Below, piece after piece: positions 21,901 to 49,632 of a stretch of DNA of 64,000 nt. This stretch comes from Marsupella aquatica (Eukaryota; Plantae; Marchantiophyta). The position numbers were made by a program, and so were the translations under genes. The stretch spans positions 7,464,963 to 7,528,962 of the forward strand of contig OZ316893.1 of assembly GCA_973895155.1 (NCBI GenBank). Direction: 5' to 3'. The notes under the pieces were generated by a model. The model searched no databases. It was not told the DNA's origin and worked only from the letters and a program-made list of their open reading frames with translations. Each line of letters opens with the position of its first letter. Within the stretch, counting starts at the first letter, position 1.

Positions 21901-22172
21901 AAAATCTCTTTCTTTGTGAAACAAGATGGAAGTCTGTACTCAACCGTGTCAGTACCATGAGACCCTCCATAGGGAAGATGCGGCATGGGTTCTCCGTTTT
22001 GGGTTAGAATGGACTCCAACAAAGCACGAGCGTGCAAGGTGCTTCCCCGTGTCTTGTGTGAACCCTTGTTTCCATGGAATCCAACCGTGCAACCTGCTTC
22101 ATATTGATTTTTGTAATCATAATACTTGGCAATGTTGAATCCATGCATTTTAATAAATGCACCCTTGCAAAC
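18950..22172 (-). mobile_element. Sola-like element, copy 2, truncated at its 5' side by MULE A
   Basis: End ATCAGTCTATTCATTAAAA plus TGTACATTTGG repeats (18990-19110); transposase breaks at VCKGAFIKMHG directly against the GGGTAT MULE end. Confidence 0.75.
19776..22172 (-). pseudogene. DUF7869/Sola-like DDD transposase, 5'-truncated, frameshifted near the C-terminus
   Basis: CTLC Zn motif, IIHDKMDQ, LQMDNSGKDNKN and FLMVGHTHEDVDALF in ORF 20139..22148; C-terminal fragments run to 19776. Confidence 0.75.
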
Positions 22173-25900: not shown

Positions 25901-27598
25901 CAGACTTACGCCAAGATGAACCAGATGGAGTCTGTCATCATTGCAGAGCTCGACAAGGAGCTAAGAGCAACCCGGGAGGAGAGGACTACCTTGAAACAAG
26001 AACGGGAGGAAGCCCAGAAGGAACTAGAGGAGGCACGCAAGGACCTGGATGAGACCCAGGAGGAGTTGGAGGAAATCACGAGGAAGATGGAGAACCTCCA
26101 GCGGCGGGCCGACAACCAAACGAAGCGGCTGAAGAAACAAGCCGCAGTATTTAAGTGCTTGTCTTCATCAGGCCCAACTCCAATTGGGGCAACCAAGTTA
26201 CCAGGAGTGGTACTGGCCGAAGAAAAAGCCGCGCCACCTGCACCAGTGCCGGAAGTAAGTGGGAAGGGGAAGGGACCAGCTGCCGAACCAGAAAAGAAGA
26301 AAAAGCGGAAACCTTCAGGGTCAAGGAGTAATCCGACTCCTCAAGCCGTGGTGACCAGGGAGGTAGAACCAGCACCATCCTCCGGCATGAATACGGCAAT
26401 AGATCCCGCTATCATCACAGGTGGGGGTGGTGCGGCCCAAGCCAAACTACTCAGTAATGAGGCCAGTATTCCAGATCCGCCTCTTGAGCAGGCCGGGGAG
26501 ACCATAGCCGAGGCTGAGGCCGTAACCGATTCCCGAGCCAATGCCGACGCCGATGGTGGACCCAGTCAGGCCGATGGAGAGTTGACTCAGTCAAGGGCAG
26601 GTAATCTGTCAGAGAATGAACCTACGGCAGTGGTTGAGGAGGAAGCGTTGGGGGCATCCATTAAGGATCCTCCACCGGTGTCGTGACGGCGCAAGGGCGC
26701 CGTTCCTTTTAGGGAGGGCGGACGTGGAGGGAGGAGGCGTGAGTGGGCAGGGCGGACGCTGATCTCCAAGTTTAGGATTAGGATCAGGACCAGGAGCGGC
26801 CCTGACACTTAGCTTAGTGGGATTGCGGTTCCACTGGTAGGAGCAACACTTGTGCTCTTGCCTTGCTGTACATAGGTAGATTCGGGCAAGTAGATTACTG
26901 TTAGGTAGATTAGGCTTACAATGCAAAGAATGGCGGATCCACTACCAGGATAAGTACCTGGGCAGCGGGGAGCTCAGGGCCTCTTCTTTAGCAAGTTTTT
27001 AGTTTGCACCAGCCGGGCTGGGATCAAGTAGTACGAGAAGCTCTCGGTTAGTCATACAGTGACCCTTGTGTATATTCATGTTTCCTCATGCCTAAGAGCT
27101 GAATAGAGTTGGCCTCACGGCTTAGTTCGCAGAGCTTGTGTATGAGATGTACTGTTTGTATGGCAAGTGCATGGTATGACTCAGTCAGAATGAGTCATTT
27201 TGCTATTTGTGTGTCGCATTAACTTGTGTGAAGAGTGCCCACATCAACCAAAAGGAAGGAAAGTAAGCAGGGGAGTGAGAGTTGGATGTGTCGAGCTGAG
27301 AGAGGTCTTAGCGGCTTAACCAAGCCTATTGGGGATCATTCCGGCGGCGGAATCCAAACATACCTAACAAGACGGAGGGGAAGACAGGGGAAGGCCTAGA
27401 TTAGGCCGGCTACGTATCTCATGACCCGATGAAGGACCTGTCCAGTATATGTGTGTAAAATGTTAACAGTAGTAGTAGAAGGTTAGCAGCGTCCCATGCC
27501 GCTAAGCCACGGAAACGGCCTCGCCAAGCTCGAAACCTGCGGGAATCGGCTTGAGCTGGGGGGTTTCTTGGGTTTAGGGAGCCATGGGACGCACCACA
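22942..27598 (+). mobile_element. 4657-bp solo LTR (family 2, Ty3/gypsy Tat-like) containing a long ORF
   Basis: TGTGATGC...GCACCACA termini; TSD GGCTG/GGTTG (one transition); flanks rejoin to restore the transposase C-terminus; full-length homology to 44856-49628, which is followed by a PBS. Confidence 0.9.
23057..26686 (+). pseudogene. LTR-internal ~1209-codon ORF: PMD-like domain plus long Smc-like coiled coil; two in-frame stops
   Basis: ORFs 23057, 23642 and 24530 share a frame; stops at 23600 and 24491 are TGG and CAG in the paralog; motif LLEFVGSWEPETNCTRIYGKDFYLTPKVIVEVFGLPIG. Confidence 0.8.
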
Positions 27599-30500
27599 GG
27601 TTGGCTACACAGGGTAGACTCCTCTACATGAAACTTGAAGACATTTATAAACACCCAATACAAATGTTTACAAGGCATATATGGCTTGCCGCGAGAATGA
27701 CGACGGAAGAAATCCTCATAGGAACAGGTTGGGAAGATGCAAATTTGGACAAAGTAAGTGTTCGGGGATCAAAGGTTCTCGTGGGTCCGGATTTTGAATT
27801 GCTTCCCAAATGCAATTCCAATACCCACATCCCACTCGCCATCCAGAGTCATAGCTTCTTTCCGAGCCGACTCCATTCGTGTACTGTGAGCCAAAGTTAG
27901 ATTTGATCAAGGTCTGGAGTTTCTCCCATTCCTGGTCCGAAGGCGTACGTTGGGGTCAGCAAAATTGATTCTTTCAAGAAATGCGTTTACATTAATTCTC
28001 AAGTCGAATGGAACAGGTGCATCTCGAGACGTCGCAGCTGTTTGGACCATCGAGACTCCCTGTGCTTGAAGGAACTCTACCTCGGCAGGTGACAAGTTGG
28101 TCCCTCTCACAACTGGCAAGATATCCGAAACAGGAGGAAGGCGTTCAACACCACGACGCGGATGGCTCTTGTAGCATGTTTTGTTTGCGCAGAACCATAT
28201 CATTTCTGCAATGGGTGTGCCTCTGAAAATTTGATGTCCGCTGACAACAATGCCGACAACACCTGTTGCCGAATGGAACCCGGATTTTTTTACACGATTT
28301 CGACACTCATCCCTCTCAGAATTTCCATGCAAAGTCCCATTGCACTGAGGCCCTGCCCCATATTTGGCCGTCCACCGCAAATGCCAGGTCCCTCTAGGAA
28401 CGTCCATTTCCAAAGGAGTTGACTCTGTCGGCAAATGTTGAAGAACAGCTGGAGCACTGAGTGGGGGTTGCGATGGTGTTGCTATTCCTCTGGCTTCAAG
28501 GATGTTTGCGAGGGAATCACTTCCATTCGTTGAAGTGTCGCTCCCGCCGAGGTCGACTATGGGATCTGTTACATTTTCGGGAAAGGAAGTGAAGGCAGTG
28601 TTGTTGAGATTCTTCCGTTTGAACCCTCGAGTATTTGGTGTAGTGATGAGAATGGTGTCATGCCGATGGGAGTCTTGTGGCGAGACAATCCCAGTTGCGA
28701 GTCCCTTCCTCTTAACTGACTTCATGACAATATCTCCATTCAGAGGAGAGCTCCTATCCAGATCCAAATCAGCAGCGTTGGAAAGAATCATGTTGGTTGC
28801 TTCTTCAAATAACTTGGGTGAACCAGATTGGTCTGCGGATAAATCTGCAGCACTAGTATAAACACACTGAGGTTTGACGAATAAAAGCATCAGGAAAACT
28901 TACCACACAAATGAAATTCCCCCATTGACGCCATCGAACAACCCACCAAGATATCCAACTCTACAACATCATCAGCTTTCCTGGGACACAATTTCCCGCT
29001 TGCCACCACAACACGATTTCCCTCGAAACTCGATACGCCGCAACAAACATTGGAGCATTCCGCAGTTTCTCCCATAGTTGCCGATGTTCTGGTTGCTTAC
29101 CCTCCAAAACTCCTTCTATAGAATGTCGATGGAAAGACTGGTAAAAGTGAAATGCATCAAAGCGTTCACGTTCAGGGTCTGGATGCCCTCCAAAAAAGAC
29201 ATTGCGAACGGCAATCCATCCAGCCTGAGCATTGTCAGCCATAAAACCTTGAATGACAACATCCTGTAACCCATTTTCCTTACAAACCTCAATCATAATT
29301 CTCCACGCTTTCTCAAAGGACTCCGTGTCTTCAGCTTTTAGTTTGCATGTGAAGATTGTACAAAGAGCTTGGAAGTTGTGATCATAAAGGTGTGCACTGA
29401 AAGTAAACCAGTCGGTTGTCACTCGCTTCATCACATCAAAACTCACCCAAGCTCCTTCCAATCTTCCGCCGGGTTGCATCTGCCGGAGAAGATCTACACC
29501 AGATCCATGACCCTTGACTGTCATTTTGAATATATGGGGCCTATCTGCTACACAACCCTGACCCGGCAGGAGGTACCTTTGGAGGAAAGAAATGTTATTT
29601 GACCTTTGCATCCAAGCTAGGAAATCTAACTCACCACGACCAGCCTGGTCCATACGAACGCTTCGACAAAGCGATGCAAATTTTTGGGGGGTAGACAGTA
29701 CCATGAGAGACTTCCAAATCTCCGTTTCTTCAATATCTACTATGTCTTCGATGTTTTCGCAAAGAGCTTTCACGAGCGATTCGGTTGCGGAATTCAAAAT
29801 ACCAGCCGGCTTTGCTAGAGGATTGGCTTCATGATTTCTTCTTATCAAATCCTCAGCTATCTTCTTAGCGCTCCTCGAGAAAACTTTCCTACTCTGATGG
29901 TTATGCTCACCTATATGAATTGCGAGCCGAGACATGTGACTATAGGTCTCTGTATCAAGGACTTGAGGGTACATATAAAACAAGCGAGCAGGGGCAAGAC
30001 TTCACACAGAAAGGAATCTGCTCACAATAGTGACAGACTACACCACCCTCTTCAATCAACGAACCCACCACGTGCTGGCCACTGAGTTTAGGAGCACCAT
30101 GCCAGGCCTTTGCATTGCATCTCTTCTTTTGTTGAAAGTACTCACAGGACTTGTTCCTGCACTCGATGAACCCGGTACACGTAACCTTACCAAATTCCCA
30201 ATGTTTCTTTGGATGCAGGCTCGCAGTTGTCGGAAAATTTGGGTCCAAATGTAACAATCTTTGGCACGGTCCATGTCACGAAGTCTAGATCCCTTGGAGA
30301 GCGTTCCCTCAATGGGAGGAAGTTCAAATACAACATTTCCGTTGTACTTGTCTGGCAAACAAGGAACTTGCTCATGCCGAAAATCCCCTGCCGAGATAAA
30401 TCTTGACAGTTCACTATGTCCCGTGGCCTTGAGTAAGGCGTCCATCGCACTCCTTCGATAGACTTTATGACCAACTCGGGAGGTAGCCACCGGCTCATCC

Positions 30501-31689
30501 TTAACAAAAGCGGGAACCGGAACATTGTACTGCGATGGAGGAGTGGGTGCAACATCACCATCTTCACTGTCAGATATGTCAACAACAACAACAGGAATGT
30601 TCCCAACTACTGGTTCCGGAGCAAGACGTCTGACATTAAGCGTGTAACTAAGCCCGACATTCATATGCCAAAAGCGTACTCCCTCATCTACATCGAATGC
30701 CGCAGCCCGTTGAAGTTCTCTTTGGGAAGGATTTTTGAGGGTTTAATAAGGAGCCTCCTAGGATTCCGCTATGTCAGTTGGTGCACATGGAGGTCGTCCG
30801 CACTTTGCAGAAAGATAGCTCCTCCATTGACAAGTTGAAAGACTCTTTTCATAGTATGGGATACAATTCGTCGATAGGAATTGAGGTTTTATGTTCAGCC
30901 GACGGACGCTGAGGGTGTGACGCTCACTTGCACACAGGAAATTCGTGATAGTTGGGATCCAATATGGATATCCGAAAACAAAAAGTTCGAGGAAGAGTGT
31001 GCGGCAGACCCCGATTTTCTCATTCTGAAGGATAAGATGTTCTCAGTTTTTGACGGGAACCATCGGTTTGTACTCCTGGACGCTTGTCACGGGTATAGCG
31101 ACGGAGACAGCAAACAGGCAAACAGGAAATACTTTTCCTGTTTGCCTTATGCTGTTACCAGGAAAAAACATCTTGTACCAGGGGAAAGAACACACAATCA
31201 GCAGTTTAGAATTGTTGAAGTTGGAGTTAGTCCATTGCGGTGAGGGAGGATACCTTGTAATGAATTGCTGAACCACATAATAATTGAACCCTAAATCCCA
31301 ACACAAACAAGGGGGAGCATACATAAAAATGTCAAGGAATGCGCACAAAATGGTAGGTCCCACCACAATCGGCAACAAAATATATGAAAATAATACAAAA
31401 TCAACGCAGCCCTAAACTTTATGTCATTATGTGGTCCAAAATAAAAGCGAACAACGGATTGACTAGCGCCTGGCGCTATCTTATTGTTATTCAAGGAAAC
31501 AAATAGTTGGCGTTGAGAACATAAATCACAACACAATGACATTTAATGGTGTAGCCTAGACGAAAAATTTACCAGCGCCTGGCGCTAACAAAACATGATG
31601 CGACATCAATAACACTATACCGTTGACATACGACAAAATCAATATAACCGTTTGGACCAATAATACAACCTACATCATCATGATTCATG

Positions 31690-34600
31690 CTATAAACGAT
31701 GAGCATTTTGCCTCTCTAATATGAGCCGAACCTCTCCAACAGTGAGAATTGGTTGGCTGGTCAATGTAGATTCCTCAACGTCTAGTTTGAAAACGGTAAG
31801 GAAAATCCAATACAAATGTTTGCAAGGCATATATGGATGTTTCCGGGAATGTCGCCGGTAGAAATCCTCACACGAGCAAGTGGGGAAAATGCAAATTTGA
31901 ACAAAGTAACAATTTGGCGTCCACATATTTTCGTGCGTTTGCACCTTAAACTGTTTTCCCCATGCATTCCCAATCGCAACATCCCACTCTCCCTGAATGG
32001 ACATCGTCTCTTTTTTTGCAGACGCAATTCTGTTCATGTGACCCTGGGTAAGATTTGACCGAGGAACCGTATTCCTCCCATTCCGGCTTCGGAGACGAAC
32101 ATTGGGTTCGAGAAGATTCACATGTTCTGGAAAGATATTGACATTGATTCGAAGATCAAAATCTGACGGGGGTCTAGTTGTAAGTTCATTTCCGCGCACT
32201 AGGGAGATTCCGTTGTCAAGAAGATATTGCAGCTCGTCCTCCGAAACATTTGTCCCTTTCAAAACGGGAAGAACATCAGGGAAAGGGGGAAAATTCAAGA
32301 CACCTCGACGCGGGCGACTTCTGTAACATGTATTGTTTGGGCAAAACCAAATCATTTCGGTTATGGGTTCCCCCCTGAAAATCTGTTGACCTTTGACAAC
32401 AATACCGATAACACCATGTGGTGAGGGAAATCCAACTTTTTTCACGCGATTGCGACACTCATCTCTTTCAGAATTACGGGAAAATGATCCGTTGCACTGA
32501 GGACCAGCGCCAAATTTTGAAGTTCGACGTAATTGCCATGCAGCTAGAGCAACCTCCGTCTCATGGACAGGACACTCTTGTAACGGTTGCTGAAGCACGG
32601 AGGGAGCAGTCTGGGGAAGCCTCGTTGAACGCGTTCGGTCTCGAGCAGGAGGGGTATTGAAATCGACATCTTCTCCAGCGCCCGAAATGTCACTTCCAGA
32701 CAGATTAACAACAGGATCAACTTGAGGCGTGGGGCCAGGGATAGCATCAAACGCCATGCGATTAAGATTCTTCCTTTTCATCGATCTAGTATTGGGCGAG
32801 GTGACAAGGATTTTATCATGCCTATGGGAGTCTTGTGGCGAGATATTCCCAGATGCATGTCCTTTCCTCTTCAAAGACTTGGTGACAACGTCTCCATTGA
32901 GAGGTGCACGTCTCTCCAAGTCAAACTCGGCAGCGTTGGACAGTAGCATATTCATTGCGTCTTCATACAACTTGGGGGAGCCTGCTTGGTCCGCTGATCG
33001 GAAAGCGAGTTCCCAAATTGTGGGACCTCTTCCTCTATGCAACCCTTTCCGATACGTAGTGTAAGCAGCAACCTGAGAAATAGCTCGATTTTGGTCCATT
33101 TCACATGCCTCAAAGAGCCCAACCTTTTTCTTCATTACCCATGCTTTCATACCTGCGTGCACGGACTCTGATCCTGTACAATTAGGAATCTTAGCCCCTT
33201 CTTGGACACTCTTGTTCTGCAATCACATAGAATAAAGTGTCTATTACAGAACAAGAAAACACTAGCGTCGGGCGTTAGTGAAGTGGACTCTCTCCTTAGA
33301 AGTCAAAACTGGCGCTGTACATTAAGGGACAATTTATTTTGTCCTATTGTGTCATATGACAGTTTGAATAAATGATAGCGCCAGGCGCTAGTATTAAAGG
33401 ATGCTATGGTATTGTAATATTTGAATATGGATACAAACATTTTGAAATGAGAATATAGCACTACAATACCTAAAGAGCGGAAAGCAAAGTAAACTAACTT
33501 ACCAAACGAATAAAATTTCCCCATTGTCTCCACCTGACGACCCACCATGAAATCCAACTCTGGAGCATCCGGAGCTTCCCGGGGACACAGTTACCCGACT
33601 GCCACCACAAATCAATCTCCCTTGAAATTCTGTAAGCCTCTACAAACGTGGGGGCATTTCGCATCTTATCCCAAAGCCTACGATGCTCTGCTTGACTATC
33701 TTCAATCACTCCTTCAATCGAATGGCGATGGAAGGCTTGGTAGAAATGGAATGCATCAGTTCGCTCACGCTCAGGGTTTGGATGCCCTCCAAAAAAGACA
33801 TTTCGGACTGCAAGCCAACCAGCTTGAGCATTGTCCGCCATGAATCCATGAATAATCGGATTTTCTAATCCATTCTCTTTGGACACCTCAATCATTAGTC
33901 TCCAAGCCTTCTCGAACGACTCTGTATCCTCTGCTTTTAGTTCGCAGGTGAACAAGGTACACAGAGCGCGATAGTTGTGATCATAAATATGCGCACTAAA
34001 AGTAACCCAGTCTTTTGTAAGCTATTTCATCACATCAAAACTTATCCAAGCACCTTCGAGACTTCCACCAGGTTGCATTTGTCTCAAAAGATCAACGCCT
34101 GATCCATGGCCGATCGAAGTCATCTTGAAAATGTGAGGACGGTCTTCTTGAGATCCTTGACCTGGTAGGAGGTACCTTTGGAGGAAAGGCATGTTGATAT
34201 TTCTTTGATACCGAACAAGAAAATCTAGTTCACCTCGACCTTTCTGGTCCTGTCTAACACTACGAAAGAGGGACGCAAACTTTTGGGGTGTGGAAACTAC
34301 CATGAGAGACTCAAATATCTCTGTTTCTTCAATATCTTGAATATCTTCCATACTTTCACACAAGGACTTTACAAAAGACCCTGTCGCCACATTTTTTACA
34401 CCAGCAGGGGTGAAAATTGGATTTCCTTCCAATTTCTTTTTGATAACCTCCTCAACAATCTTCTCTGCGCTCCGAGAAAACACCTTTCTTGAAGGATGGT
34501 TGTGGATCCCCATATGAATTGCCAAGCGGGACATGTGAGTACAGGTGTCTGAGTCAACTAGAACCTGGGGGTACATGTAAAATAACCTTGCTGGACAGGA

Positions 34601-35554
34601 TTGGACACAAAACGGAACTTGATCACAAAATTGGCAAACAACTCCACCTTCGTCAATGAAGGAGCCAACACGATGTTGCCCGCCAAGTTTGGGGGTTCCA
34701 CCCCAGGCCTTCTGGTTCCTCCTTTTCTTCCGCTGAAAATAGTCGCAAGTATTATTCCTACACTCAATGGAACCAGTGCACGTTACTTTACCAAATTCCC
34801 AATATTTCTTGGGATGAACATTAGCTGATGTAGGAAATATTCTGGTCCAGATGTAGCAATCCTTTGACCGGTCCATGTCGCGTAGACGTGACCCCTTCGA
34901 AAGAGCTGCCGTCGTAGGAGGCAACTCGAATACAATATTTCCATTGTATTTCTTTGGCAAACAGTCGACTTGTTCATGGCAGAAGTCCCCAGCCGCAATG
35001 AACCTCGAGATTTCACTGGAACCAGTTGACTTGAGAATGGTATCCATTGCACTTCTCCAATACACAATGGAATTTTTGGTAAAAACTGCTGTAATCTCCT
35101 GTTTAACAACGGTGTGAGCGGATTTAGCACTATGCTCAGGCAAAGCAGGTCCATCATCGTCGCTATCTGAAAGCAGGACAACATCAACAAAGGGTTTGGA
35201 TGAAGATGGGAGATCGGATTCGACTGGTTTTCGAATGACAATAGAATACCGAATTCCTGCATTCAGGTGCCAAAAACGAATCCCGTCATCAACATCAAAA
35301 GAAGCAGTGGAATTAGATGCTTCATCTCCATTTCCCTCCTCCAAAATGTCCTCAATGTCGTTCAAATCCAAACCAAAGCGCCCACAGAGATAATTCTCAC
35401 TAACTTGCTTGTATACGACATTGGCCGACAATGGAATGGATACAAGGTCACAGGTAGACAGACGCGTCAGAACGATTGACCTCGACATTTTAAGATCATC
35501 CAACCCAAAAACACTCAGTTCACGATAATGAATGACGTCTTCGAATGTACACAA
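31690..35554 (-). pseudogene. MULE transposase B (GCM/WRKY-like Zn domain, DDE, SWIM zinc finger), one intron (~33217-33502), premature stop at 34022
   Basis: SFDVMK / FMADNAQAG / DAFH / ESVH; SWIM CSCEDF...PCKHLYW; GTAAG...TTGCAG intron ends. Confidence 0.88.
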
Positions 35555-36436
35555 TGGTATTCATAGTGAATAATCCGTTTGTCAGAGCCGTTATAATACG
35601 ACAGAAACACTACCGGTCGAAAGCACATCTGACACAATAAATGTTTTTTGTCGTTATGTCAACGACATTTACACTAATGAGCCTAAGATGTCCGTTTCCA
35701 AAGAGCATAATCATGATAATTAAATCATGTTAATTGAGTAGCGCCCGACGCTACTCAAACATCCTACCTTCAACATGGACCCAAAATGGTGAAATATGGC
35801 GCTACTCAAACACACACCATAAATTATGGTATAAAAGTGGAATGTTTTATCCGGGGTTTCAGAATAAATACTAAATGTTTGTAGCTAATTTTTTAATATT
35901 ATCTAAAATATTACCAAAATGTGCCCATTTAATATTAGCGTCGGGCGCTAATCCAAAACGGTAATCATGACATTCATTTATGGAAAAATATTCAAAAATT
36001 GTATTCATTTGGCTTTTTATTGTATACTTGAGGGTGAATGTTGACCTAACTTTGGGAAATTTTATGGTTTAAATTGTGATGATTTTGAGTAGCGCCTGGC
36101 GCTACTATTGACCAATATCAGATTTGAACTAGGAATATATATTAAATTCAACGAACTGTTCTTTAACGGTCATATTCAACGGTAACGTTAGGTCGCGTAA
36201 CGTCGAAGATATGCCAACGGTATTCGGACAACTAATCCAGAATTGACAAGTGGCGCTCAAGAGATAGATATCAAAGTAGCAAGGGGATAGTTTAGAGATG
36301 ATACTCCCCCCCCCCCTCCCTTGTCCGCTGTATTTAGGTTCCGTTTCGGAGGTTCTTCGTGCAAGAATTCTCTAGAAGAAGTACGGTACGAATGAGGTAC
36401 TCATCACGATCGTGAAGCACTTCGTGTCTGAGAAAC

Positions 36437-39400
36437 ATGGACCTTCTCCCCACTACCTCGCATGGGTATAGTGCTGTTGGGCAGGGAGAGTAGATCCATT
36501 CGCAGACATCTGAGTGCTCGTTTTCTGGATCTGTTTACAGTCGTCGAGTGACACGGTCTACAGCATCCCAAGCTCCCAAAACAGTCTCTGTAGTCACATT
36601 TCCGAAGAGCAGGAGAGCGAAGATGGATGATCTCGACACATATGCTGTGGAAGATCGAGGAGAAATGTCGCTGACGATGTCCGACATTATCTCCAAGCAT
36701 GTTATGGTGTTTGGCAAAGATTTTCGAGGGCACGACAAAGACCCCCCAAGGATTCCAATGTGCCGCTTGGTTCACATGGAAGTTGTCTGCACCTTACAGA
36801 AGGGAAGTCCTTCAATTGAAAAGTTGAAGGACTCTTTTCGTAGCACAGGATACAACTCAAAAATCGGAATGTTGTTCTATGTCCAGCCGACAGATTCAAA
36901 TGGGAATGTCCAGACGTGTACTCCAGAAATTCGAGCTTCCTGGGACCCGATGTGGGTGGCCGAGAACGAGAAGTTTGAAGCTGAATGTGCGGCCGATCCA
37001 GACTTCATGGTGTTACAAGATAAGATGTTTTACGTTTTTGATGGTAACCATCAACTTTACGCATGTCGATCGTTACGAAAGAAAATCCGGAAGATATCAA
37101 GTATCACCCGCGTGTGCAATGTACTATCTTCAAGGGTGAAAAGGGATCTTTGATTGAGATTGAGGCGGCTATGCATACTGTGAACCAGTAAGTCTCTCGT
37201 TGAGTTTCACTTATCCTTACCTTTTATAGTGTAGTTTTTACTAGCGCCTGGCGCTATTGACTGACAAATTCTTCTGTAGACTTGGACAGGCCGTGGTGGA
37301 ACCTTCCTGGATACTTGATGCAGACCGAATTAAGAGGATTTTGTCCAACGATCTAGAATACTACAAATCAATCATCGATGGGGCAAACTTCAAGAAGTTT
37401 GGGCAGGTGATGCAGAAGACTCAAAAAGGATCGTGGTATTCCAAGAAAATGCCTCAAGAAGCACTTCTGTATATCTTATGCGAGAATAAGATTAAATCCT
37501 ATTCTCGACAATTCAAGATGGACATGGAGTCGGCCACCGCTCAGGGAAATCCTTGGTCTCAGGAAGAGACATCCAAACGACATGCGGTCATGATGAAAGA
37601 AGCAACGAAGGATTGGGCGATCAAGGTCTCAAAGATCACTCCCTTGTTGAGTCCAGAGTTTGAAGACTTCATGACAACCTGTGCTGAGATGTATCCGATG
37701 ATCGAGATGAACAAACGCGAGAAGAAACCGGATGCGGTTGTCTGTACCATGGATCGTGCCAGGTTATTTACAGCAGTCTCCGCACTCGACCCCAAATTGA
37801 GGAGCACTTTGTTAGTAGCGCATTGCACGCCAGAGCTCAGGAAGCAATTCTTTCATCCACAAAGTGTTAGTGATGACCCTGTGAAGCAGTGGTGCCACAC
37901 TTGGCAAACTTGGAATAGCGTGGAGGGAATTGCTATTGGTATGCTGCAGACTGCCCTCCAGCAAATCAGTGAAATAATTCCTTCCAATCGATTGGAGGAA
38001 TGGAAGTGTGAGTCTTATGATTCACTCGTTGAAATAGTGTGCAATGATTTCAAAAAATTTGGGGATGCAGTGAAAGGTAAGTTTTTCAATACGATGTGGA
38101 TGTCCAAGTACCCGGACAAGGAAGACTACACACTCAAGAATCAAAAGCGAGCGAAACGATATGTCTATCGTTTCTTCATGCACATGGAGATTGTGAAGCC
38201 TGATTTTTTTTGGGCTTACCCAGCTGCTTTCCAGAATTGGGTCATCTGCGCAGATGGAGATATTTTGGCCGAACTGTATTCGATGTATCCGGCTGAGGGT
38301 ATACTTCCACCGAGGAAATTGTCAGAGTGGGAGAGAATTCACTGCCCTTGGTATCTTGACACCGACAGATGGGATTCTCCTTTTGACGACACTGAGAAGG
38401 ATCCTTTCCATAAACTGTCTAAATCCCAAGTTCCGAGACAATTTGTCTCCGACATGAAGCAAGGAATTGAGGGGGACGTCAACTCGTCGACGACTGAGTT
38501 GCAAAAAAAATGCGAAACCACAGTGGTTCATGTTGATCGAAGCCGAAAACCAAGAGCCAAAGCCAAGGCGGATGCCCGTGTGGCAAGTGCTAGTGCCAAG
38601 TCTGGGAAAAAATGTAAGCTACACCTCCTTTTTCCGACTTCCTTCTTTGTTAGCGCCTAGCGCTATCATGTGTCGTGAGTTTAATGTGTCATATTTCCCA
38701 AAATTAATGTGGTGTGTTTGGTCAGTGCCTGGCGCTAACACTCTTTCTGTGCTTGACACCATTTTGGGTAGGTGGTCGAAAATCTGATGCCGCCACGGAT
38801 GACACAAAAGTCGATGCAACACCAGAAGTCTCTAAGGCCAACACTGGTGCCAATCCAGACCCCATCACCCCTGTTGAGAAGGGGCAGGTTATAGTTCCTG
38901 TGGATGCTACAAGGACAAAAAAGAAGAAGAAAAGGACCGTCGATGTCTGGGAATCTTCTCGAGATAATGCTTCTGGGGCCGGTATCCAACGGGATGTGGG
39001 GACTTTCAAGACCAAACTCGGAAGACATTGTATGGTTGAATCAAGCTTGGCAGAATTTATTGATAGTGCATTTAGTAAGGAAGAGAAGCCAGATTGGGTC
39101 TCAGACGCTGAGAAGTGGGGTAAGGATTTGATCAAATCGGGGTGTAGAGATAAAGGAATCATTCGAGGTGGGAAGGAACGATCATTTGGGGTGAATGCGG
39201 GTTTCATCTATCTCCCAACTGGTTTGAAACCCACAATTGTTGACCGTCGGGTCCCGAAATGGAATGTCACAGATCACACAGCAGCCGAATCATTCTGTCG
39301 GACGATGGACCCTTTCCTTTCCAATGACGGAATGCTCGCTATCTTATACTCGGATGACCACGATCAGATTTCCCAGGTCATTTCTGCATGTCAGCAATCC

Positions 39401-40164
39401 AAGAAGTTCATGTGCATCAATACGCACAACGTTTTCATGTCTGTCCCAATGTACAGATCCAAGACAGATGTCCAGGTAAATATTCTCTCTCAGTATAGCT
39501 ATACTAGCGCCCGGCGCTACTCTTTATTTCTTAGGAGGTCTTCTCTCATGAGAAAAAGATTTTTGAAATCCAGTTGGTTCATCAACTTTTGCAGGTCTTC
39601 ACTCTTCGACTGGACATATTTTGTCGAGTTTCTTTTAAAGGAAAGGTCCCAAAGGATCCAAGATTCAAGCCATTATCTAGCGCTGAAGATCCTTCAATCT
39701 CGAACCTTATTGGGCTACAATCTTTGAAGGAAGATCATTGTCCTGAACTCCATTTTACTGGGAATTCCCGACTGCCGGTTGGTTTTATGCAAACTGTCCT
39801 TGAACTCTTTACAATACCTAAGGATATTGTAATTGATTGGACCGTCGGCTCAGGTAGTACGTTCATTGCTGGGGATTACTCGGGCCGTTTTGTCATCGGG
39901 TTAGAAAATCATCGGGAGTTTGTTGAGACCGCTTCGAGGATTTTTTTGGACCTCATTTCTCCAAAACCTTTGGAGACACAACCTCCCCCTCCTCAAATAA
40001 CCGGACGAAAAAAGAAAGATAGACTTAGATCTATCCTCAACTTTGATTCGGACGAAGATGATGGGACGCCAGAAGATGATGTTCCTGAGGATGTCAATGA
40101 CGGCGGGAAAGAGGAAACCCGACATGATGGGTCAACGGAGGACAGCGAAGAGTCTTCCGAGTAA
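36437..40164 (+). pseudogene. ParB/Srx-like + helical region + beta-class N6A/N4C DNA-methyltransferase-like fusion gene, copy B (4 exons: ~36437-37187, 37280-38612, 38772-39475, 39595-40164)
   Basis: RIPMCRL...SIEKLKDSFRSTGY...VFDGNHQL; GFIYLPTG...FLSNDGMLAIL; RLPVGFMQTVLELFTIPKDIVIDWTVGSGSTFIAGDYSGRFVIGLE; GT-AG introns at the same places in A and C; stop near 36491 and frameshift near 37066. Confidence 0.8.
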
Positions 40165-40279
40165 TTTTCGTCTCTCGTAAGCTCCTTCATCCTTTCAATT
40201 GTTGGCTAATCTTCAATTCCGCCAGTTCTATCGGTTAAGTACTTACTTCCTCTTTCTCTTCTGCTTCTCTTTTGAGCAG

Positions 40280-40589
40280 GTCAGAATGGAACCAAAGAAA
40301 ATGGTTTCAACTCTGGAGGAAAGTGGCTCAAAATGTAATCATCACTCCCGAGAAGCCATTTGTATTGCCATCATACGCTGAGAACGTCGCGAGGAAGGTA
40401 GAGAAATTTAGAACTCTCTGCTGGGAAACAAAAGGACTTAGGCTTCTTAGGGGAGTAGACAGGAAGTTCATGAGGAACCCCTACGTAGATGATGTTTCTA
40501 GAAGCAAGTATATTGATGATGAGGCAGAGTCGACCGACAGATCTCATAGCTCCCAGAATGAGAGCTCAGAATCTGACTTTGAAGGGTAG
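40280..40589 (+). CDS. Third small MULE ORF/exon (~100 aa, basic then acidic), unknown function
   Basis: SEWN...TPEKPFVLPSYAEN...RTLCWExKGLRL...NPYVDDVxRSKYxDDEA conserved with copy C (~51890-52188, minus); preceded by a CAG acceptor. Confidence 0.6.
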
Positions 40590-43500
40590 CAATTTTCTCC
40601 TCTCTCAGGTCAAACTTCCTCCCAATTGTACGAGTATGCCCTTGGTTTTTGTTAGCGCCGGGCGCTATTGAATTTATTAAAAATGAATTGAGTTTTAGGG
40701 ATGTTGCCCCTTCCTTTCAATGGTTAATGTGGTCTTGAGTACCGTCCTTTGTGTGGGTTCCTCGGCTTGGTTAATTGGCGCCCGCCGATACCCAAAAAAC
40801 ACGTCGGAAGCTTCCGTTTGTTATTTGTCGTTTCCGCCCTAGTGTCATTTGGCTTTCACTCGAAGACTGGTACCGACAAGAGGACCTGTAACGATAAATC
40901 CAAGCCCCTTATTGACATACTATTGTTTCTTTCAAAGTCCATTTCTCTCATTTTTCTCCTTCTCGGTTCCATGGAAGGCCAGTTTATCGACGGCCCACGA
41001 GAGCATATGTCAACTTCCGATTAGATGGTTTCCACCAAGATCCAGATTGTCAGAACTCTGGGATTGATGATGAATGTCACTCTTCGAGATAGGACATTGT
41101 ACGAGGAGGCACCCACCGGGAGTGTTAGCGCCTGGCGCTAGTTACAATTGTTCTGGAAACTTTAGTGTTCCTAAGTAGAAATATTTGTACACCGAGGACA
41201 ATATGTTTCACTTAAATAAAAAATCTCGGGTTTTTTTTCTTTCAATTTCCCTTTAGAAGTTATGACTCAGATACCTTGGTTAAGTCCTACTTCTGTGCTT
41301 TGATATTGAACTTAGACTATTATTAATGTTTGGTTCTACTTGGATCTCAGCCTGAACATCAATCCTAGGTTCTCGTGATTTTTTGCACAAAGAATTGGAA
41401 GCGGCTGGCTCTAATATTCGGCATGTTTGGGCGATTAATGTGTCAATATTTTGGGTTTGAACGCCCGGCGCTAGTATTCGGCATGATGCGTTTGTGATTA
41501 TTTTTCCTGTGGACTCCCGGCGCTAATATTCGGCATCGCATAATTATCAGTATTTTAGGAACTGATTTTTTTAATTTTGCCACAATACCAGGAGAAATGT
41601 GCTCCCAAAATAGGAAATTTTGCTGTTACCAGTTCCTGTTATATTTTGCTGTTTGCTGTTTACTGCCTTTTGTAAACACCTCCTTGTCACTAAGGAGAAT
41701 CTAGAAAACATGAAATACCACCCGCGAGTGCTCTGTACTGTCTTCAATGGGGACAAGGGTTCACTGATTGAAATTGAAGTGACGATGCACACCGTGAACC
41801 AGTAAGTTTGTCTTTTTAGCATATCTTGGAGAGGAATTGTTTTACAAGCGCCCAACGCTGCTTAAATGTTTTTCAAATTGCTTTCTTTTCCTTCAGGCTT
41901 GGACAAGCCATGGTCGAACCGTCATGGATCCTTGACGCAGATTGAATCAAGAGGATTTTGATTCACGACCTGGAGTACTATAGTAAGCTCATCGACCCTA
42001 CGAATTATAAGAAGTTTGAGCTGATCAGGCTAAAGATGCGGAAAGGATCCTGGTACACGAAGAAGATGCCTCAAGAGGCTCTTGTCTATATTCTATGTGA
42101 GAATAAGATTAAATCATATTCTAACCAGTTCAAGCTTGACATGGAGTCCGCTGCGGCCTAGGTACCCCTTGGTCGGCCGAGGAGGTTTCCACAAGGCATG
42201 CCGTAATGATGAAGGAGGCCACCAAGGAGTGGGCAATGAAAACATCAAAAATCACTCCTTTGTTGAGTCCAGAATTTGAGGACTTTCTGTCTACGTGCGC
42301 AGAAATGTATGCTGTGATGGAGAGAAATAAGTGAGAGAAGAAACCAGATACCGTCTTGTGTACGATGGACCGAGCCAGGCCTTTTACTGCTGTTTCCGCA
42401 CTCGACCCCAAGCTCAGGAGTACTTTGCTTGTCGCCCATTGCAATCCTGAGCTCCGAAGGCAATTCTTCCATCCGAACAGAGTCAATGATGATCCAATAA
42501 AACAGTGGTGTCACACCTGAATAACGTGGAACAATGTAGAGGGGATTGCAGTGGGGATGTTACAGTGTGCTTTGAGAGAGATCCAACAAATTATTCCCAA
42601 GAATCGCCTGCAAGCCTGGGCATGTGAATGTTTTGAAGCTCTCATTGATATAGTTACTAATGATTTCAAGAGATACGAAGACTCGGTGAAGAGTAAGTTT
42701 TTTAATACAATGTGGCCTTCGAAGTATCCGGACAAAGAGGACTACTCTTTGAAGAACCAGAAGCGAGCAAAAAGGTACCTCTACCAATTTTACATCCACA
42801 TGGAAGTAACTAGACCTAATTACTTCTGGGCATATCCCGCCGCTTTTCAGAAGTGGACAGTAATATCAGAAGGTGACAATTTATGTGATTTGTACTCTAT
42901 GTACCCCACGGAGGGAATTTTCCCAGCAAGACCTTTAAGTGAATGGGAGAGAACCCACTGTCCATGGTACCTAGATATAGACAGATGGGACTCGCCCTTT
43001 GATCACCGAGAAAAGGATGCTTTCCACAAGCTCTCTAAGTTGTAGATACCAGTCAATATTGTTTCTGACATGAAGCAGGGACTAGCGGACAATGTAGATA
43101 AGTCCACAACAGAATTGCAAATGAACTGTGAGACCACAGTTGTTCACGTTGACCAAAGCCGGAAGCCTCGCGCGAAAGGGAAAGCTGATACTGTTGTCCC
43201 AAGTGAATCAACAAGGTCCGGGAAAAAACGTAAGTATAATTTGCAGTTCTTTGGTTAGCGCCTGGCGCTGCTATGCCATTCAATATATGTTAGATTGCAT
43301 TTGTCTCATTTGTTCCAGAAATATATATATTTCCTTCCATCTCTTCAAGAAAGTTTGGCCAGCGCCGGGCGTTAGTATACTTTGCATTTTCCATACGCTC
43401 AAATGTAACATCGCCTTCCATTGGATCAGGGAGAAAGACAAACGCCATCGGCAATGGCGATACAAAGATAGATGCCACCCCAGAGGCATCTGAAGCCAAT

Positions 43501-44964
43501 ACAGGGCCTCCATTTGACCCACTTACACCCGTCGAGAAAGGGAAGTCAATTGCTCCAGTAGATGCGGTCAGTACTAGAAAGAAGCGAAAAAGGGCAATTG
43601 AAGGTGGATCCTCCTCCGCTCGGGAAAGTGCGGTTGCAACGAGTGTTCAACGTGAAGTTGGTGACTTCAAAAACACTCTTTCAAGGCATTGCATGGTTGA
43701 GTCTAGCATCTCAAAATTCTATGACACAACGTTCAACAAAGAGGAGAAGCCTGACTGGGTAAATGGTGTAGAGAAATGGGCAAAGGAACTCATGAAGTCG
43801 GGATATCGAGACAAGGGAATTGTCCATGGGGGGAAGGAAAGATCCTTTGGAGTACACGCGGGATTCATTTACCTTCCTACGGGTCTGAACCATCGCTGCT
43901 AGATAGAAAAGTCCCAAAATGGAATACCCCTGACCACACACTGGCAACATCATTCTTTCGTGGAATGGACCCATTTTTATCAAATGACGGAATGCTAGCA
44001 GTTTTGCATAATGGGGAGTACGATCCTATGTCTCAGGTTATATCCACATGTTAGGAATCGAAGAAGTTTCATTGCATCTCCACACACAATGTTGTTATGT
44101 CAGTTCCTATGTACGTGCCGAAGACTGACCGACAGGTAAATTCCAAGTCATGATCTCTATTTTTTACACTCAAAAATGTGTATGAATGCAAGGAATGACA
44201 TATCATTCTTGGTTTATCTCGCAGATATTCACGCTCAGGCTAGACGTCTTTTGCCGAGTATCTCAGAAAGGGAAAGTACCCAAGGACTCGAGGTTTAGAC
44301 CTCTGTTTGTTACAGAAGATCCCTCCATCACTAATTTAATTGGGCTTCCAACTCTCAATATAGATCCAACACCTGAGATGGAATTCGCAGGGAATGCCCG
44401 TTTGTCGGTTGGATTCATGCAGTTTGTGATAGAGCTCATCATTCGGCCTCAGGATATTTTCATAGATTGGACAGTTGGTTCGGGTAGCTCTTTTGTAGCT
44501 GGAGACTATTCTGGGAGGTTTGTTATTGGACTGGAGAATTGGAAGGATTTTGTTGAAACTGGTTCCAAGGCGTTCTTAAATCTACTCTCTTCTAAGGAAG
44601 TAGAAACCTTGCCTCCCCCAATTCAACCACCGGAAAAGAAAAAGAGGGACAAGCTCCGGTCTGTACTTAATTTTGACTCCGATGATGAGTCAAGTGGGGG
44701 GACAGCAGATGAAGTGGACGGGGAGACAACTCAAGGGGAGTAAGGAGCAATCTGCTGGCGAGAGTGACAGCGATGACTCTTTCGAGTAATGTTCTGAAAC
44801 TCGTAAGCTTCTTTCTCTTTTCCAGCTCCTTCATGCATTTTGTGCTATTGATTATTGTGATGCCTAACCAGGAATCACTAGGCCGGTTAAGTGGGAAAAC
44901 GGAAGTGTACCCTAGAAACACCTTAGTATAGTTACAAGAATGAGGAAAATATATACAATTAAGG

Positions 44965-47900
44965 ATGACTATGGAACCCGGGCCGAGGCCGGAAGTAAGG
45001 ACGCCGGGGGAGAGAATACAATTAGGGTTAGGGCGCACTAAGTGTCGACGGCTAGGGATAACCAACGATAGGGAAGACCAGAGGAGGAGAGGGGTAAGGA
45101 CGGCTCACGAGGAATGGTGGCTCATTTGCAAGCACGAACTGGGCAGACGACTATGGGAGGCCAACTACTGTCAGCTGCTTAGACAAGCACTCTGGGCGGG
45201 AGCAGATACCAACGAATAACTCAAGGAGGGTATGAGCAACGTCAATCAAGCGGCACATTTTTGGGGATGCATGTTCGAACGGGCAATTGAGTACATTGGG
45301 ACTTATGAGGACGAAGAATCGGAGAGAGCAGCTCGAGAACAGCAGGAGCTCGCTCGACTATGGGAGTTGCTGAAATCTGCCTTCTTAGGAGGAGAATTCA
45401 TCAAGGTCGAGTTCTTGTGGACTCCTACTGCCAATCAGCTTGATGACCTTCTGTTTTGCGAAAACAGGATCGTCGGTATTTGGGAAGCCATCAACCGCTG
45501 CAACGACATACACTGGGAGTTGAAGGGTAGCATGGAGGGGTGGACAAAGGCAACCATGCTAGGAGAAACATCCATGGCAGCCGAGATGAAGAGAAAAGGA
45601 AACAACAACGAAGAGGCCACCCCAGCAAAAAGAACAAGGTCGGCAGCACCAAGGAAGCTAGCAGAGCAGGGAAGCAGGAGGCAGGCGGAAGCTGACAAGG
45701 AGGAGGTCAATCCCATCAATGCCATTCCAACAAAGGATGACACCTGGAAAGGCTGGGCGGCGACCCTACCAGAAGAAGTGCAACTGCATTTTGCACGGGA
45801 GGAGGATGCATGCTTTACCCATGCAGACCAAGAAGTACCAGGGCTTCATAGCCGGATCCAGCTTGGAAGCCTTCGTAAAATTACCATGGCTGAAGCCGGA
45901 GGTGCCGGATTCAGACTTATTAGAATCTGTGGGATCATGGGAGCCCAAGACCAATTCCACAAGGGTGTATGGGAAGGATTTCTATCTCACTCCCCGGGTG
46001 ATTGCCGAAGTGTTTGGCTTGCCGATGGGCAATAAGACCAAAGTAGATACCAGGAAGACCTTGCCAGACAAGGAGTTCCGGTTGTTTCCAGGGCCATCAA
46101 CAAAGAATGGCTTCTTTTGAAACACCTGCACCAACCCACACATAGGAGAAATGATCGATTTCTTGCGGGTGACCATGCATTGTAACTTGCCGAGGGCAGA
46201 GATCGGCAAGACATAGGTCTATCTGGCGGAGAGGCCAGACCCAAGCCGAGACTACAACGGGTACCTCCTCACCCAACTAAAGAAGATCTTGAAGGAGGAA
46301 CAGCTGGTGATCGGCATGGGAAGCGTGTCCCGGCTTGGCTATCACATGCCGCTATTGTGCCGGTATGCCAGAAGTCAGATCTTTGCCCCAGTACTTCCCC
46401 TACAGGCGAGGGCACCAGAGGAAGTCCCGAAGCAGAGGCCGGCAATAGAGGAGCCCAACCAGCCCGCCAGTCCTACGATCAAGTAGATGTTTTGGCCAAG
46501 AAAAGAAGACTTGCCGATGCAGCAATCAGGCATGCAGAATCTGCTGAAATTGCTGGAAAAGGAGAAGAGAACGGCAACGGCACCGGCACCGGTACAGGAC
46601 ACTGCCCCAGAGGTTGGCCTAAGCCGACTCAGGAGGGAAAACCCCTTTACCGGAGCCAAGGTGAGAAGGAGGCCAGAACACGAGCCGGGAGTTCGAATGT
46701 ATGTGGGAGCCTCTAGCCCCGAATCGGAGGCAGAGCAGCCTAAGGCTCCTGCCCGCGGAAAGCAGAGGGAGAAGACAGCCTGGAAGCCAGAGGAGGAACC
46801 AGGGCCCATGATCTGTGAGGCCATTTTTACGGCGGGACCAGGAGAATAGAGGGGGAAGCCGGGAGTCCAAGCAGTGGAGGAGGCGGTGGAGGACTACAAC
46901 AATGATAACTCTGGCTATGGGTCGGATCATCATGTACCAGGAGTAAGAACCTGTGGCCGCTTTATCCCCATGCTTCCAAGAGTAGTTCGAGGGGATCCCA
47001 CCCAACAGAGCAGCCCCGAGTCCCCCCCACCAGATGTCGCTCCCCCGAGATTTGATGGCATAAAGCAGACGGCACAAGAGTTTCAGGAGCGACTCAGAGA
47101 GGAAGAGAAGGCAGCCCTGGCTAGGGAGAAAGATTTACCAGGAGGAGATTGGTCGGAGGACATCAGGCGGCTTGCCGAAAAAAGAAGCAACCCTCTTGCC
47201 ACCATAGAAGAAATCCGCAGGGCGGCTTGGGAACAGAGGCCGAGGTGGTTGATGCCGATGACTTCTACTTACTCCACCTATGCTAAAGATAGAGCCATGG
47301 AGTATGGGGAGATGTGTGGGGAACTTGCGCTCAGCATCTTTGGGGAGGAGTTGGAGCAGGGACCCTTTTTCCAGAGGGAGATATTGGAGAAGCACCAATT
47401 AGAAGAAGCGGTGGCTTTGGAGAGAAGCAAGAAGGACAAGGTCATCCGGCGGCTTAGGGAGATGGAAGCCGAGGTGGAAGACCTAAAGGCAGCCAAGAAA
47501 GCCCAAGATGAGCTACGGATTAAACGGCATGAGTTAAACATCATGCAGGGGTAGTTGGATACCGTGCAGTCTGATAATCAGATTATCAAGGATAAACTGA
47601 CTCAGACCCAAGGAGAGTTGGCCGAGGCGGTCAAAGATAGGGAGAAGTGGAAGCAAGAGCTGAGAGACGCAGAGGAGGCCCACATAGCAGCCAACAAGCG
47701 GGCCATGACGGAGACTCAGAGAAGGGAGAGGGTGTTGAAGGGGGAACTCAAGGATATCCGTGCAGCCCTAGAGCAGAAGGAGGCCAAGTTAGGGAAATCC
47801 TATCAGGCGATTATTGTGCTGCGGTAGGAGCTCGCATCCATGATGGCCAGCTTCAAGGCCAACCTCCGCAAGAAAGATGACCAGCTCGACCAGACTTATG

Positions 47901-48709
47901 CCAAGATGAATAAAATGGAGTATGAGGTCGTTACAGAGCTCGACAAGGAGCTGAGAGCAACCCAGGAGGAGAGGGCTACCTTAAAGAAAGAGTTGGAGAA
48001 AGCCCATAAAGAGTTGGAGGAAGCCCAGAAAGAGTTGGAAGAAGCCCAGAAGGAGCTGAAGGAGGCAAGGAAGGACCTGGATGAATTGCAGGAGGAGTTG
48101 GAGGAAAGCACACGGAAGATGGAGAACTTACAGCGGCGGGCCGACAACCAAACGGAGCGGCTAAAGAAACAGGCCGCAGTATTTAAGTGCTTAGCTTCAT
48201 CTGTTCCAACTCCAATTGTGGGAACCCCATTACCAGGAGTGGTACTGGCAGAAGGACAAGCCAAGACACACGCCCTGGTGCCGGAGGTAAGTGGCAAAGG
48301 GAAGGGACCAGCTGCCGAAATAGGGAAGAAGAAGAAGCGGAAACCTTCTGGGTCTGGGAGTTATACGGCTCCTCCAGCCGTTGTGACCAAGGAGGTAAAC
48401 CCGGCACCAACCTCCGGCATGGTCACGACAATGGATCCACCTGTCAAGGAAGGTGGGGATGGCAAGGCCGAGGCCGGGACAACTATTGATGAAGCTGTGG
48501 TAGCAAACCCACCACTAGAGCTAGCCGAGGAAACCATAGCCGGGGAGGCTGTGGCCGATACTGATGCCAAAGCCGAGGGTGGACCCAGTCAGGCCGATGA
48601 AGAGTTGACTTGGTCTGAGGCAGGTAATCTGTCAGAGGAAGGACCGACGGCAGTGACTACGGGGGAAGCGTTGGGGGCGTCCATTGAGGATCCACCATTG
48701 GTGTCGTGA
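44965..48709 (+). pseudogene. LTR-internal PMD-like/coiled-coil ORF, more decayed paralog of 23057-26686
   Basis: Colinear fragments 44965, 45232, 45719, 46289, 46487, 46874, 47555 and 47840; multiple TAG/TAA/TGA stops and one frameshift. Confidence 0.8.
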
Positions 48710-49632
48710 CGGTGCAAGGGCGTCGTTCCTTTTAGAACGGCGGACGTGGAGGTAGGAGGCGTGAGTGGGCAGGGCGGGCTCGGATCTCCAAGTTTAGGTT
48801 GAGGATCAAGACCAGGAGACGGCCCTGACACTTAGATTAGTGGGATTGCGGATCCACTAGTAGGAGCAACACTTGTGCTCCTGCCTCGATGTACATATGT
48901 AGATTACAGTTAGGTATATTACAGGTAGGATAGATTAAGCTTACGCTGCTATGAATTGGCGGATCCACTTCCAGGATAAGTACCTGGGCAGCGAGGAGTC
49001 CAGGGCCTTTTTTTTAGCAAGTTTTTAGTTGCACCAGCAGGGCTGGGATCAAGTAGTAAGAGAAGCTCTCGGTTAGTTATACAGTGACCCTTGTGTATAT
49101 TCATGTTTCCTCATGCCTAAGAGCTTAATAGAGTTGGCCTCACGGCTTAGTTCGCAGAACTTGTGTATGAGATGTACTGTTTGTATGGCAAGTGCATGGT
49201 ATAACTCAGTCAGAAGGAGTCATTTTGCTATTTGTGTGTCGCATTAACTTGTGTGAAGAGTGCCCACATCAACTAATAGATGAAGGGAAGTAAGCAAGGG
49301 AGTGAGAGTTGGATGTGTCGAGCTGAGAGAGGTCTTAGCGGCTTAACCAAGCCAATTGGGGATCATTCCGGTGGCGGAATCCAAATACACCTAAAGAAAA
49401 GGAGGGGAATACAAGGGAAGGCCTAGATTAGGCCGGCTACGTATCTCATGACCCGATGAAGGATCTATCTAGTATATGTGTGTAAAATGTTAATAGTAGT
49501 AGTAGAAGGAAGTTAGCAGCATCCCATGCCGCTAAGCCGCGGAAACGGCCTAGCCGAGGACAAAACCTGCGGGAATCGGCCTGCGCAAGGGGGTTTCTTG
49601 GGTTTGGGGAGCCATGGGACGCACCACATTTT

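Follow-up and report, generated by a model that had tools for sequence, protein, structure and literature searches.

A liverwort Mutator-like element carries a conserved gene for a predicted ParB-methylase fusion protein with a probably inactive methylase fold

In the portions of the literature available, ParB-methylase accessory genes of transposons have been noted only in algae. The Ectocarpus element Sola1-1_Ec32 bears, opposite its transposase, a gene for a 1104-amino-acid protein with ParB and N4/N6-methylase parts, which was proposed to bind and modify its own element (PMC12477816). Red-algal Plavaka elements carry PAG2 (PF01555 plus SET) and PAG3 (ParB plus 2-oxoglutarate (2OG) oxygenase), with homologs reported in Mutators of Chondrus (10.1101/2025.02.11.637652). 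VANC21 binds motifs that are specific to its element and lie outside the coding parts (PMC5735166), and VirB is a ParB-type antisilencer that depends on cytidine triphosphate (CTP) (PMC10770331). Among methylases, MpDN4MT1 is a host gene with the motif TSPPY (10.1101/2021.02.12.428880), N4CMT helps to silence transposons (PMC8885841), and inactive methylases have been noted in DIRS1 elements (PMC4738411). Here, a stretch of 64,000 nucleotides from the liverwort Marsupella aquatica (contig OZ316893.1, positions 7,464,963 to 7,528,962; referred to as the window) was analyzed, in which a Mutator-like element (MULE) carries a spliced gene, the cargo gene, whose product joins a predicted ParB/Srx domain, a helical middle domain and a methylase fold. 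An earlier note on this DNA knew of no MULE with such cargo. For land plants this stands, in that no description of a ParB-methylase cargo was found in the open literature; the same design has, however, been published for the Ectocarpus Sola element, and Chondrus Mutators are reported to hold homologs of the red-algal accessory genes. The cargo is a land-plant, likely pseudo-enzyme variant of a known but uncharacterized kind. We give an even chance to the reading, the likeliest of those considered, that it is a long-conserved MULE accessory gene for a self-targeting anti-silencing factor, which would spread from palindromes of its own element and whose methylase fold would be dead.

Self-comparison of the window revealed three homologous spliced copies of the cargo gene, A (plus strand, 36.4–40.6 kb), B (plus strand, 30.7–31.1 and 41.7–44.9 kb) and C (minus strand, 56.8–51.9 kb), with amino acid identities of 64–85% depending on the segment. 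The gene of B is in two pieces because a complete element of 10,592 bp, element A, has inserted into its exon 1. Element A is flanked by an 8-bp target duplication (CTTGTCAC at 31083–31090 and 41683–41690), across which the reading frame of B continues. The duplication and the resumption of the frame together place the cargo gene of A inside the mobile unit. The elements and their parts are as follows.

31091–41682, no strand: Mutator-like element A, within cargo exon 1 of copy B; its ends are short, imperfect and G-rich, with AAACAG repeats.
31690–35488, minus strand: MULE-type transposase of A, about 1170 codons, with a predicted intron at 33502–33217 and one internal stop at 34024.
27592–30742, minus strand: transposase of B, broken and with its 5′ end deleted; 61–80% amino acid identity to that of A, at a ratio of nonsynonymous to synonymous substitution rates (dN/dS) of about 0.08.
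30715–31090, plus strand: 5′ part of the B cargo gene, a ParB domain with VVRTL and DGNHR, severed by element A.
41691–44856, plus strand: remainder of the B cargo gene (exons 1b–4), terminated in intron 4 by an insert resembling a long terminal repeat (LTR).
49936–56806, minus strand: copy C, with the cargo gene from 56806 to about 51900, a 3′ non-coding part and an element end at 49936.
55969–56305, no strand: non-autonomous derivative of 337 bp with the two end types of the family, in the ParB exon of C and flanked by a 9-bp duplication.

A Mutator-like element is well supported as the carrier of the cargo gene. The transposase of A, for which start codon and splice were inferred, reads as a single spliced frame with DDE-like motifs (SFD, MAD, DAFH and SES) and a C-terminal SWIM-like CxC..CxH; SWIM is often present in MULE-type DDE transposases. 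No Pfam match was obtained for the transposase. The paralog in B scored 0.94 against MULE clusters in Atlas, and its 10 best named matches all agree on the MULE family. Long terminal inverted repeats (TIRs) are typical of MULEs and absent from the non-TIR groups; the termini of element A show only short, imperfect similarity to each other. The duplications of 8 bp around A and 9 bp around the 337-bp derivative lie within the 8–11 bp that is a hallmark of MULEs (PMC6446971). Cargo gene and transposase stand head-to-head in A and B, the divergent arrangement that had been described earlier. Copy C has no adjoining transposase within the window, and neither a partner end nor a target duplication was found for it; position 60943, considered as its far end, was rejected as it lacks the terminal motif.

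The cargo gene of A comprises five predicted exons, all on the plus strand, with about 1221 codons.

36437–37187, plus strand: exon 1, a low-complexity leader and, from about 36740, the predicted ParB/Srx-fold domain, with box II DGNH[Q] at 37040–37054.
37280–38613, plus strand: exon 2, an open frame for an all-helical domain of about 420 amino acids.
38772–39475, plus strand: exon 3, a basic linker (KKKKKR) and the first half of the methylase fold, with a degenerate motif IV, Y-L-P-T, at 39209–39220.
39595–40160, plus strand: exon 4, the second half of the methylase fold, with motif I DWTVGSGS at 39835–39858, motif II GLE and an acidic tail.
40280–40589, plus strand: predicted exon 5, in frame, LPSYAE..RNPYVDD with an acidic end.

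The start at 36437 is backed by a matching ATG in copy C, and GT-AG introns lie at equal positions in the three copies, except that the first acceptor of C was not found (intron 1 of C, at 55250–55600 on the minus strand, contains about 380 extra bases). The shared intron positions and the degree of identity bear out the claim of the earlier note that a spliced gene is present in three copies. None of the predicted introns matched the joints listed from sequencing runs, for which an RNA origin is not documented. The gene had been estimated at about 1100 codons with its end at 40164; the start was correct, but the end moves to 40589 through the predicted exon 5. The apparent stop at 40162–40164 overlaps a splice donor common to A, B and C, and the acceptor of exon 5 is kept in A and C. 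Between A and C, this exon has a ratio of nonsynonymous to synonymous differences per site (pN/pS) of 0.20, and a similar segment terminates the Riccia proteins P0163, P0164 and P0168.

All three copies of the cargo gene in the window are dead. That of A is interrupted by a premature TAG (36491) and by a frameshift of 1 nt close to 37064, and in those of B and C the frame is broken by several stops and frameshifts each. Related contigs, of which 85 to 2155 were aligned per run, stem from many diverged copies; in them, position 36491 is a C in four of four runs and an extra base follows 37064 in three of four. Past purifying selection on the gene is clear. The dN/dS between B and C, a check that had been proposed beforehand, is 0.133 (confidence interval (CI) 0.106–0.168; 946 codons), far from the neutral value of 1, and the two halves of the methylase give 0.13 and 0.18. 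In comparisons of A with B or C the silent sites are saturated (pS 0.81–0.83, pN 0.18).

Judged by its sequence, the C-terminal part is a beta-class N6/N4 methylase fold (PF01555) in which the S-adenosylmethionine (SAM) motifs are kept. Exon 4 matches PF01555 (E = 1.1e-8; score of 35.8 bits, cut-off 26.7) and also DpnA, MboIIA and CcrM, and the family profile aligns with CcrM across 200 positions and with five phage enzymes at 97% probability over 200 columns. The C-terminal motifs occur in the claimed order, IV...X-I-II, which is that of beta-class N6A/N4C methylases, and the Pfam and profile alignments confirm the assignment to this fold. The Asp and Gly of motif I are each present in 18 of 18 sequences, and motif II is acidic in 16 of 18. 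The catalytic motif IV of beta-class methylases is (D/N/S)-P/L-P-(Y/F/W). In the window it reads Y-L-P-T in all three copies, with Tyr in the Asp column as in P0169; in the profile alignment, D-L-P-T of the family stands opposite D-L-P-Y of the phage enzymes. Among 25 fetched relatives, some of them near-duplicates, 24 retain the motif IV Asp, whereas only one, a fern sequence with D-V-P-F, has D-x-P-aromatic, and the aromatic residue is absent from 21 of 21 Riccia sequences. The HPTQKP motif of the phage enzymes is replaced in the cargo family. In rotifer N4CMT, changing the first and fourth residues of the motif (SPPY to APPA) abolished the activity (PMC8885841). An active enzyme is unlikely because YLPT stands in place of the DxPY catalytic motif, and the fold is probably catalytically dead, a conserved pseudo-enzyme. 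Phage methylases are about 21–36% identical to the cargo among the matches listed, mostly over motifs X–II. No close viral relatives of the cargo were found in viral contigs. One genome match (L008) considered as a prokaryotic relative spans 19 residues and was taken as chance. Some Riccia members are labeled ‘trimethylguanosine synthase’ in UniRef, an annotation that looks automatic and was disregarded.

The N-terminal domain is predicted to adopt a ParB/Srx fold with a GxxR phosphate box. A model of this domain from the relative P0007, which is 53% identical to the corresponding piece of copy A, has a predicted local distance difference test score (pLDDT) of 91.5. In a VIA search of this model against 48,161 chains, the eight best matches were all ParB/Srx proteins with Z scores of 5.0–7.0, which, being under 8, are not decisive by themselves; the best unrelated chain reached 2.5. 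The best match was KorB (Z 7.0, root-mean-square deviation 3.1, 95 aligned), within 1 Z unit of SerK, PadC and Srx. The top 10 rows of the Foldseek search are Noc, ParB, KorB and Srx, with a best E of 0.04. The ParB/Srx domain claimed previously, with the fold search suggested as its check, is thus upheld by the model of a close relative and not by sequence profiles; weak sequence matches in the family are to DUF1015 and DndB (four members each), with a weak DGQHR match. The G, N, H and R of box II are kept in 93, 98, 93 and 80% of 135–138 relatives, and the final Asn without exception (65 of 65). Of the 150 proteins listed, a set with many fragments, 93 have [DE]GNHR. All three copies had been said to carry VVRTL and DGNHR. 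This is true of B and C, in which the GxxR box is present, but A reads VVCTL and DGNHQ. The interpretation of DGxHR as a CTP-binding signature did not hold, as the nucleotide cannot be deduced from the motif: ParB-fold proteins include binders of adenosine triphosphate (ATP), CTP and guanosine triphosphate (GTP), and no rule that predicts the nucleotide emerged (PMC12704722).

Between these two parts lies the domain encoded by exon 2, whose 427-amino-acid model is all-helical (pLDDT 84) and which is 28% identical to Riccia P0158. It is a candidate for the DNA-recognition or dimerization part of the protein. The model gave no clear match in Foldseek or VIA when searched whole and not by subdomain, which is not evidence of a new fold.

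A 15-bp palindrome, TAGCGCC-N-GGCGCTA, which had escaped the earlier note, recurs in the element cluster. Eighteen matches were found with up to one mismatch and none in each of 100 shuffles; 26 were found with up to two. The matches are confined to the cluster, and none falls in the two LTR-like inserts. Fourteen of them belong to element A.

31464, 31573, 33263, 33376, 35739, 35936, 36090, 37242, 38651, 38723, 39505, 40653, 41126 and 41459: palindromes of element A.

All 14 are in non-coding sequence, which makes up 32% of the element (p = 1.3e-7). Nine are located in the interior, either in introns or within the divergent promoter region, with three full palindromes and one half-site between the start codons of transposase and cargo gene; others lie close to both ends of A, and the 337-bp derivative keeps one (56118). 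Where intron 2 of A and B is compared, 25 of 30 palindrome bases are identical as against 54 of 106 flanking bases. The observed/expected ratio of CpG is 0.78 (CI 0.73–0.82) in the cluster and 0.64 (CI 0.60–0.67) elsewhere. In P0192, a relative of 37% identity from a JGI contig, reading on into intron 2 gives a sequence that terminates in LLAPGA, the translation of a palindrome of the window type.

A different palindrome was seen in a relative (L001) on a 1.9-kb locus, which was obtained from a metagenome scan with P0188; the same scan with exon 2 gave nothing. Its middle domain is 46% identical and its locus has no TAGCGCC-type palindrome at up to three mismatches. It contains 13 copies of AAGCCC-NN-GGGCTT, all in intron 1, against 0.13 expected, and this pattern occurs in the window at chance levels only. 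Co-evolution of the cargo protein and the type of palindrome is a lead and not a result, because the L001 pattern was chosen by eye from a single contig.

Relatives of the protein are numerous. A profile search with N-terminal pieces gave 234 clusters at 50% identity, and the named members among 30 proteins looked up are nine of Riccia sorocarpa and five of Adiantum, with none of the 14 from algae. Calypogeia fissa holds a further member, which brings the genera represented by name to two of liverworts and one of ferns. Riccia P0158 (1207 amino acids), a single predicted protein, combines all three parts. Of 67 listed matches extending as far as the first intron position, 39 stop there, which suggests that this intron is conserved across the family. 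A search with exon 2 for longer relatives found none among 3894 candidates, and a profile search showed this to be a miss of sensitivity.

The canonical ParB CTPase clamp binds and hydrolyzes CTP, closes as a dimer and slides. Analogous to this, the anti-silencing reading holds that the cargo protein would recognize its own element through the candidate palindromes and that its ParB-type nucleotide-binding domain would let it spread from them by clamp loading. The dead methylase fold would then act as a SAM- or DNA-binding reader or as a scaffold, and silencing of the element would be countered. VANC21, with a motif enriched in non-coding parts of its element (PMC5735166), is a parallel in layout, and VirB is one for a ParB clamp that counters silencing (PMC10770331). 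For the possible action on the element's own chromatin that the earlier note suggested, the palindrome offers a candidate target. A broader form of this proposal is more tentative, and we doubt it more than we trust it: liverwort and fern Mutators may run a bacterial ParB/parS-style system within plant chromatin, in which a nucleotide-gated clamp slides from lineage-specific palindromes and keeps the element unsilenced, with the dead methylase as a reader and with protein and palindrome changing together.

Several observations weigh against a clamp that acts on its own element. Canonical ParB clamps need a helix-turn-helix that reads the palindrome, and none was identified in the middle domain, the model of which was searched whole. 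In addition to the VIA scores below 8, no match reached E 0.001 in Foldseek, no PF02195 match was found for the window pieces or for 64 aligned members, and a profile search of the family against the PDB gave no ParB match. The palindrome in intron 3 of A is absent from B. For L001, the 818-bp array that contains the second pattern is perhaps an unrelated repeat, and no transposase is present on the 1.9-kb contig. Linkage of cargo and transposase is seen in two of three copies, all in one window, and the weaker CpG depletion of the cluster may reflect its age. ParB-fold fusions are frequently users of ATP or GTP, or enzymes (PMC12704722). It could also be the transposase, rather than the cargo protein, that binds the palindrome, because the AtMu1 transposase alone activates AtMu1 copies (10.64898/2026.08.24.746577).

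The most serious competitor, which we nevertheless regard as unlikely, is a role in transposition that leaves silencing unaffected. The protein, bound to the palindromes, would bridge or compact the element so that its ends pair, in the manner of MudrB or TnpA. The short and imperfect ends of the element are consistent with such help, as are the palindromes near both ends and the one retained in the 337-bp derivative, and MudrB is said to be required for integration (PMC6446971). The nine internal palindromes of A, however, fit VANC-type coverage better than end-binding.

The cluster of three full palindromes and a half-site between the two start codons would also suit a long-range autorepressor of the KorB kind, which would load at the palindromes, damp the divergent promoter and limit transposition. 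KorB regulates at long range (PMC12704722) and is the best VIA match, but the tie with SerK, PadC and Srx deprives that rank of much weight. Selection for a repressor would also be less obvious in a plant host that already silences such elements, and this explanation appears improbable.

We assign a similarly small probability to an active amino-methyltransferase with an unusual active site, which would place N4-methylcytosine (4mC) or N6-methyladenine (6mA) on the palindrome or close to it and thereby block 5-methylcytosine (5mC) by the host. Conserved SAM motifs, purifying selection on the domain, the fern relative with D-V-P-F and the Asp in 24 of 25 fetched sequences are all compatible with catalysis, and 4mC or 6mA is predicted for the Ectocarpus protein (PMC12477816). 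The lineage of the window, on the other hand, has lost the first and fourth catalytic residues, HPTQKP is replaced and the Riccia sequences lack the aromatic residue. Neutral captured cargo or a chance match of motifs, to which the broken state of all three copies might point, is largely refuted by the dN/dS of 0.13, the 234 clusters and the shared architecture of Riccia P0158, and can practically be discarded.

If the anti-silencing reading is true, the cargo would illustrate how a transposon evades plant silencing through a borrowed bacterial loading-and-sliding device, and it could provide a sequence-specific epigenome tool. The broader form, if true, would represent a second anti-silencing mechanism of land plants with an origin separate from VANC. 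Genes of a type noted in algal transposons now make up a large family in land plants, among them the liverwort genus Riccia, which is tractable. Tests can build on the 15-bp candidate site, on a different one in a second lineage, on the conserved arginine expected to bind the nucleotide and on the prediction of a dead methylase.

Other features of the window concern its insertions and flanks. Self-insertion has occurred twice in the family, of A into the ParB exon of B and of the 337-bp derivative into that of C, at sites about 120 bp apart in the gene; this self-insertion at 27600–57300 may mean that the family prefers certain targets or that the chromatin of these elements is open. Two inserts of 4.7 kb each (22937–27608 and 44857–49628), both inside element B, are 83–86% alike, have TG...CA ends and contain long coiled-coil open reading frames without a retroelement Pfam match; they may be solo LTRs of very large size. 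At 59500–61950 the DNA consists of tandem arrays, the periods of which are about 160, 576 and 84 bp, and weak Pfam matches at 62596–64000 (plus strand) indicate the endonuclease end of a long interspersed nuclear element (LINE). Two DUF7869 genes (10800–12200 and 20142–22214, minus strand) lie near eight perfect GGATAC-NNN-GTATCC palindromes (12462, 13473 and 18028–18838) in a region of strong CpG depletion (0.34–0.39), where no relative of the ParB-methylase protein was detected.

Compared with the systems described so far, the cargo protein most closely resembles that of Sola1-1_Ec32, which matches it by description in length (about 1100–1200 amino acids), in the combination of a ParB-like part with an N4/N6 methylase and in its position on the strand opposite the transposase. 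As far as the available account of that element goes, the present case differs in having a MULE as carrier, in a land plant, a degenerate catalytic motif and a specific palindrome. Plavaka PAG2 and PAG3 likewise bring both domain types as transposon cargo and prompted a proposal of self-binding (10.1101/2025.02.11.637652). In the part of that report available, however, the two domains belong to separate genes, each fused to another enzyme, and inverted-repeat arrays adjoin the ParB gene, whereas here a single protein contains both ParB and methylase, and the repeats are scattered over introns. With VANDAL and VANC of Arabidopsis, the locus shares the plant MULE, the accessory gene and the lineage-specific non-coding motifs (PMC5735166). 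VANC21, whose motif as described there has 9 bases arrayed in one orientation, has a demonstrated activity; the counterpart of that motif here is a candidate palindrome known from sequence. Features shared with the clamps ParB, Noc, KorB and VirB are the predicted ParB/Srx fold with its GxxR box and a candidate palindrome about as long as parS. The protein departs from them in that no helix-turn-helix was found, in the lack of a ParA, in insertions within the fold and in its fusion to the helical and methylase parts. In motif order (IV...X-I-II) and SAM motifs it follows CcrM, DpnA, MboIIA and the phage DLPYG enzymes. The eukaryotic 4mC writers MpDN4MT1 (TSPPY) and rotifer N4CMT (SPPY) are host genes, in contrast to the YLPT-bearing protein of Marsupella aquatica, which is the cargo of a transposon.

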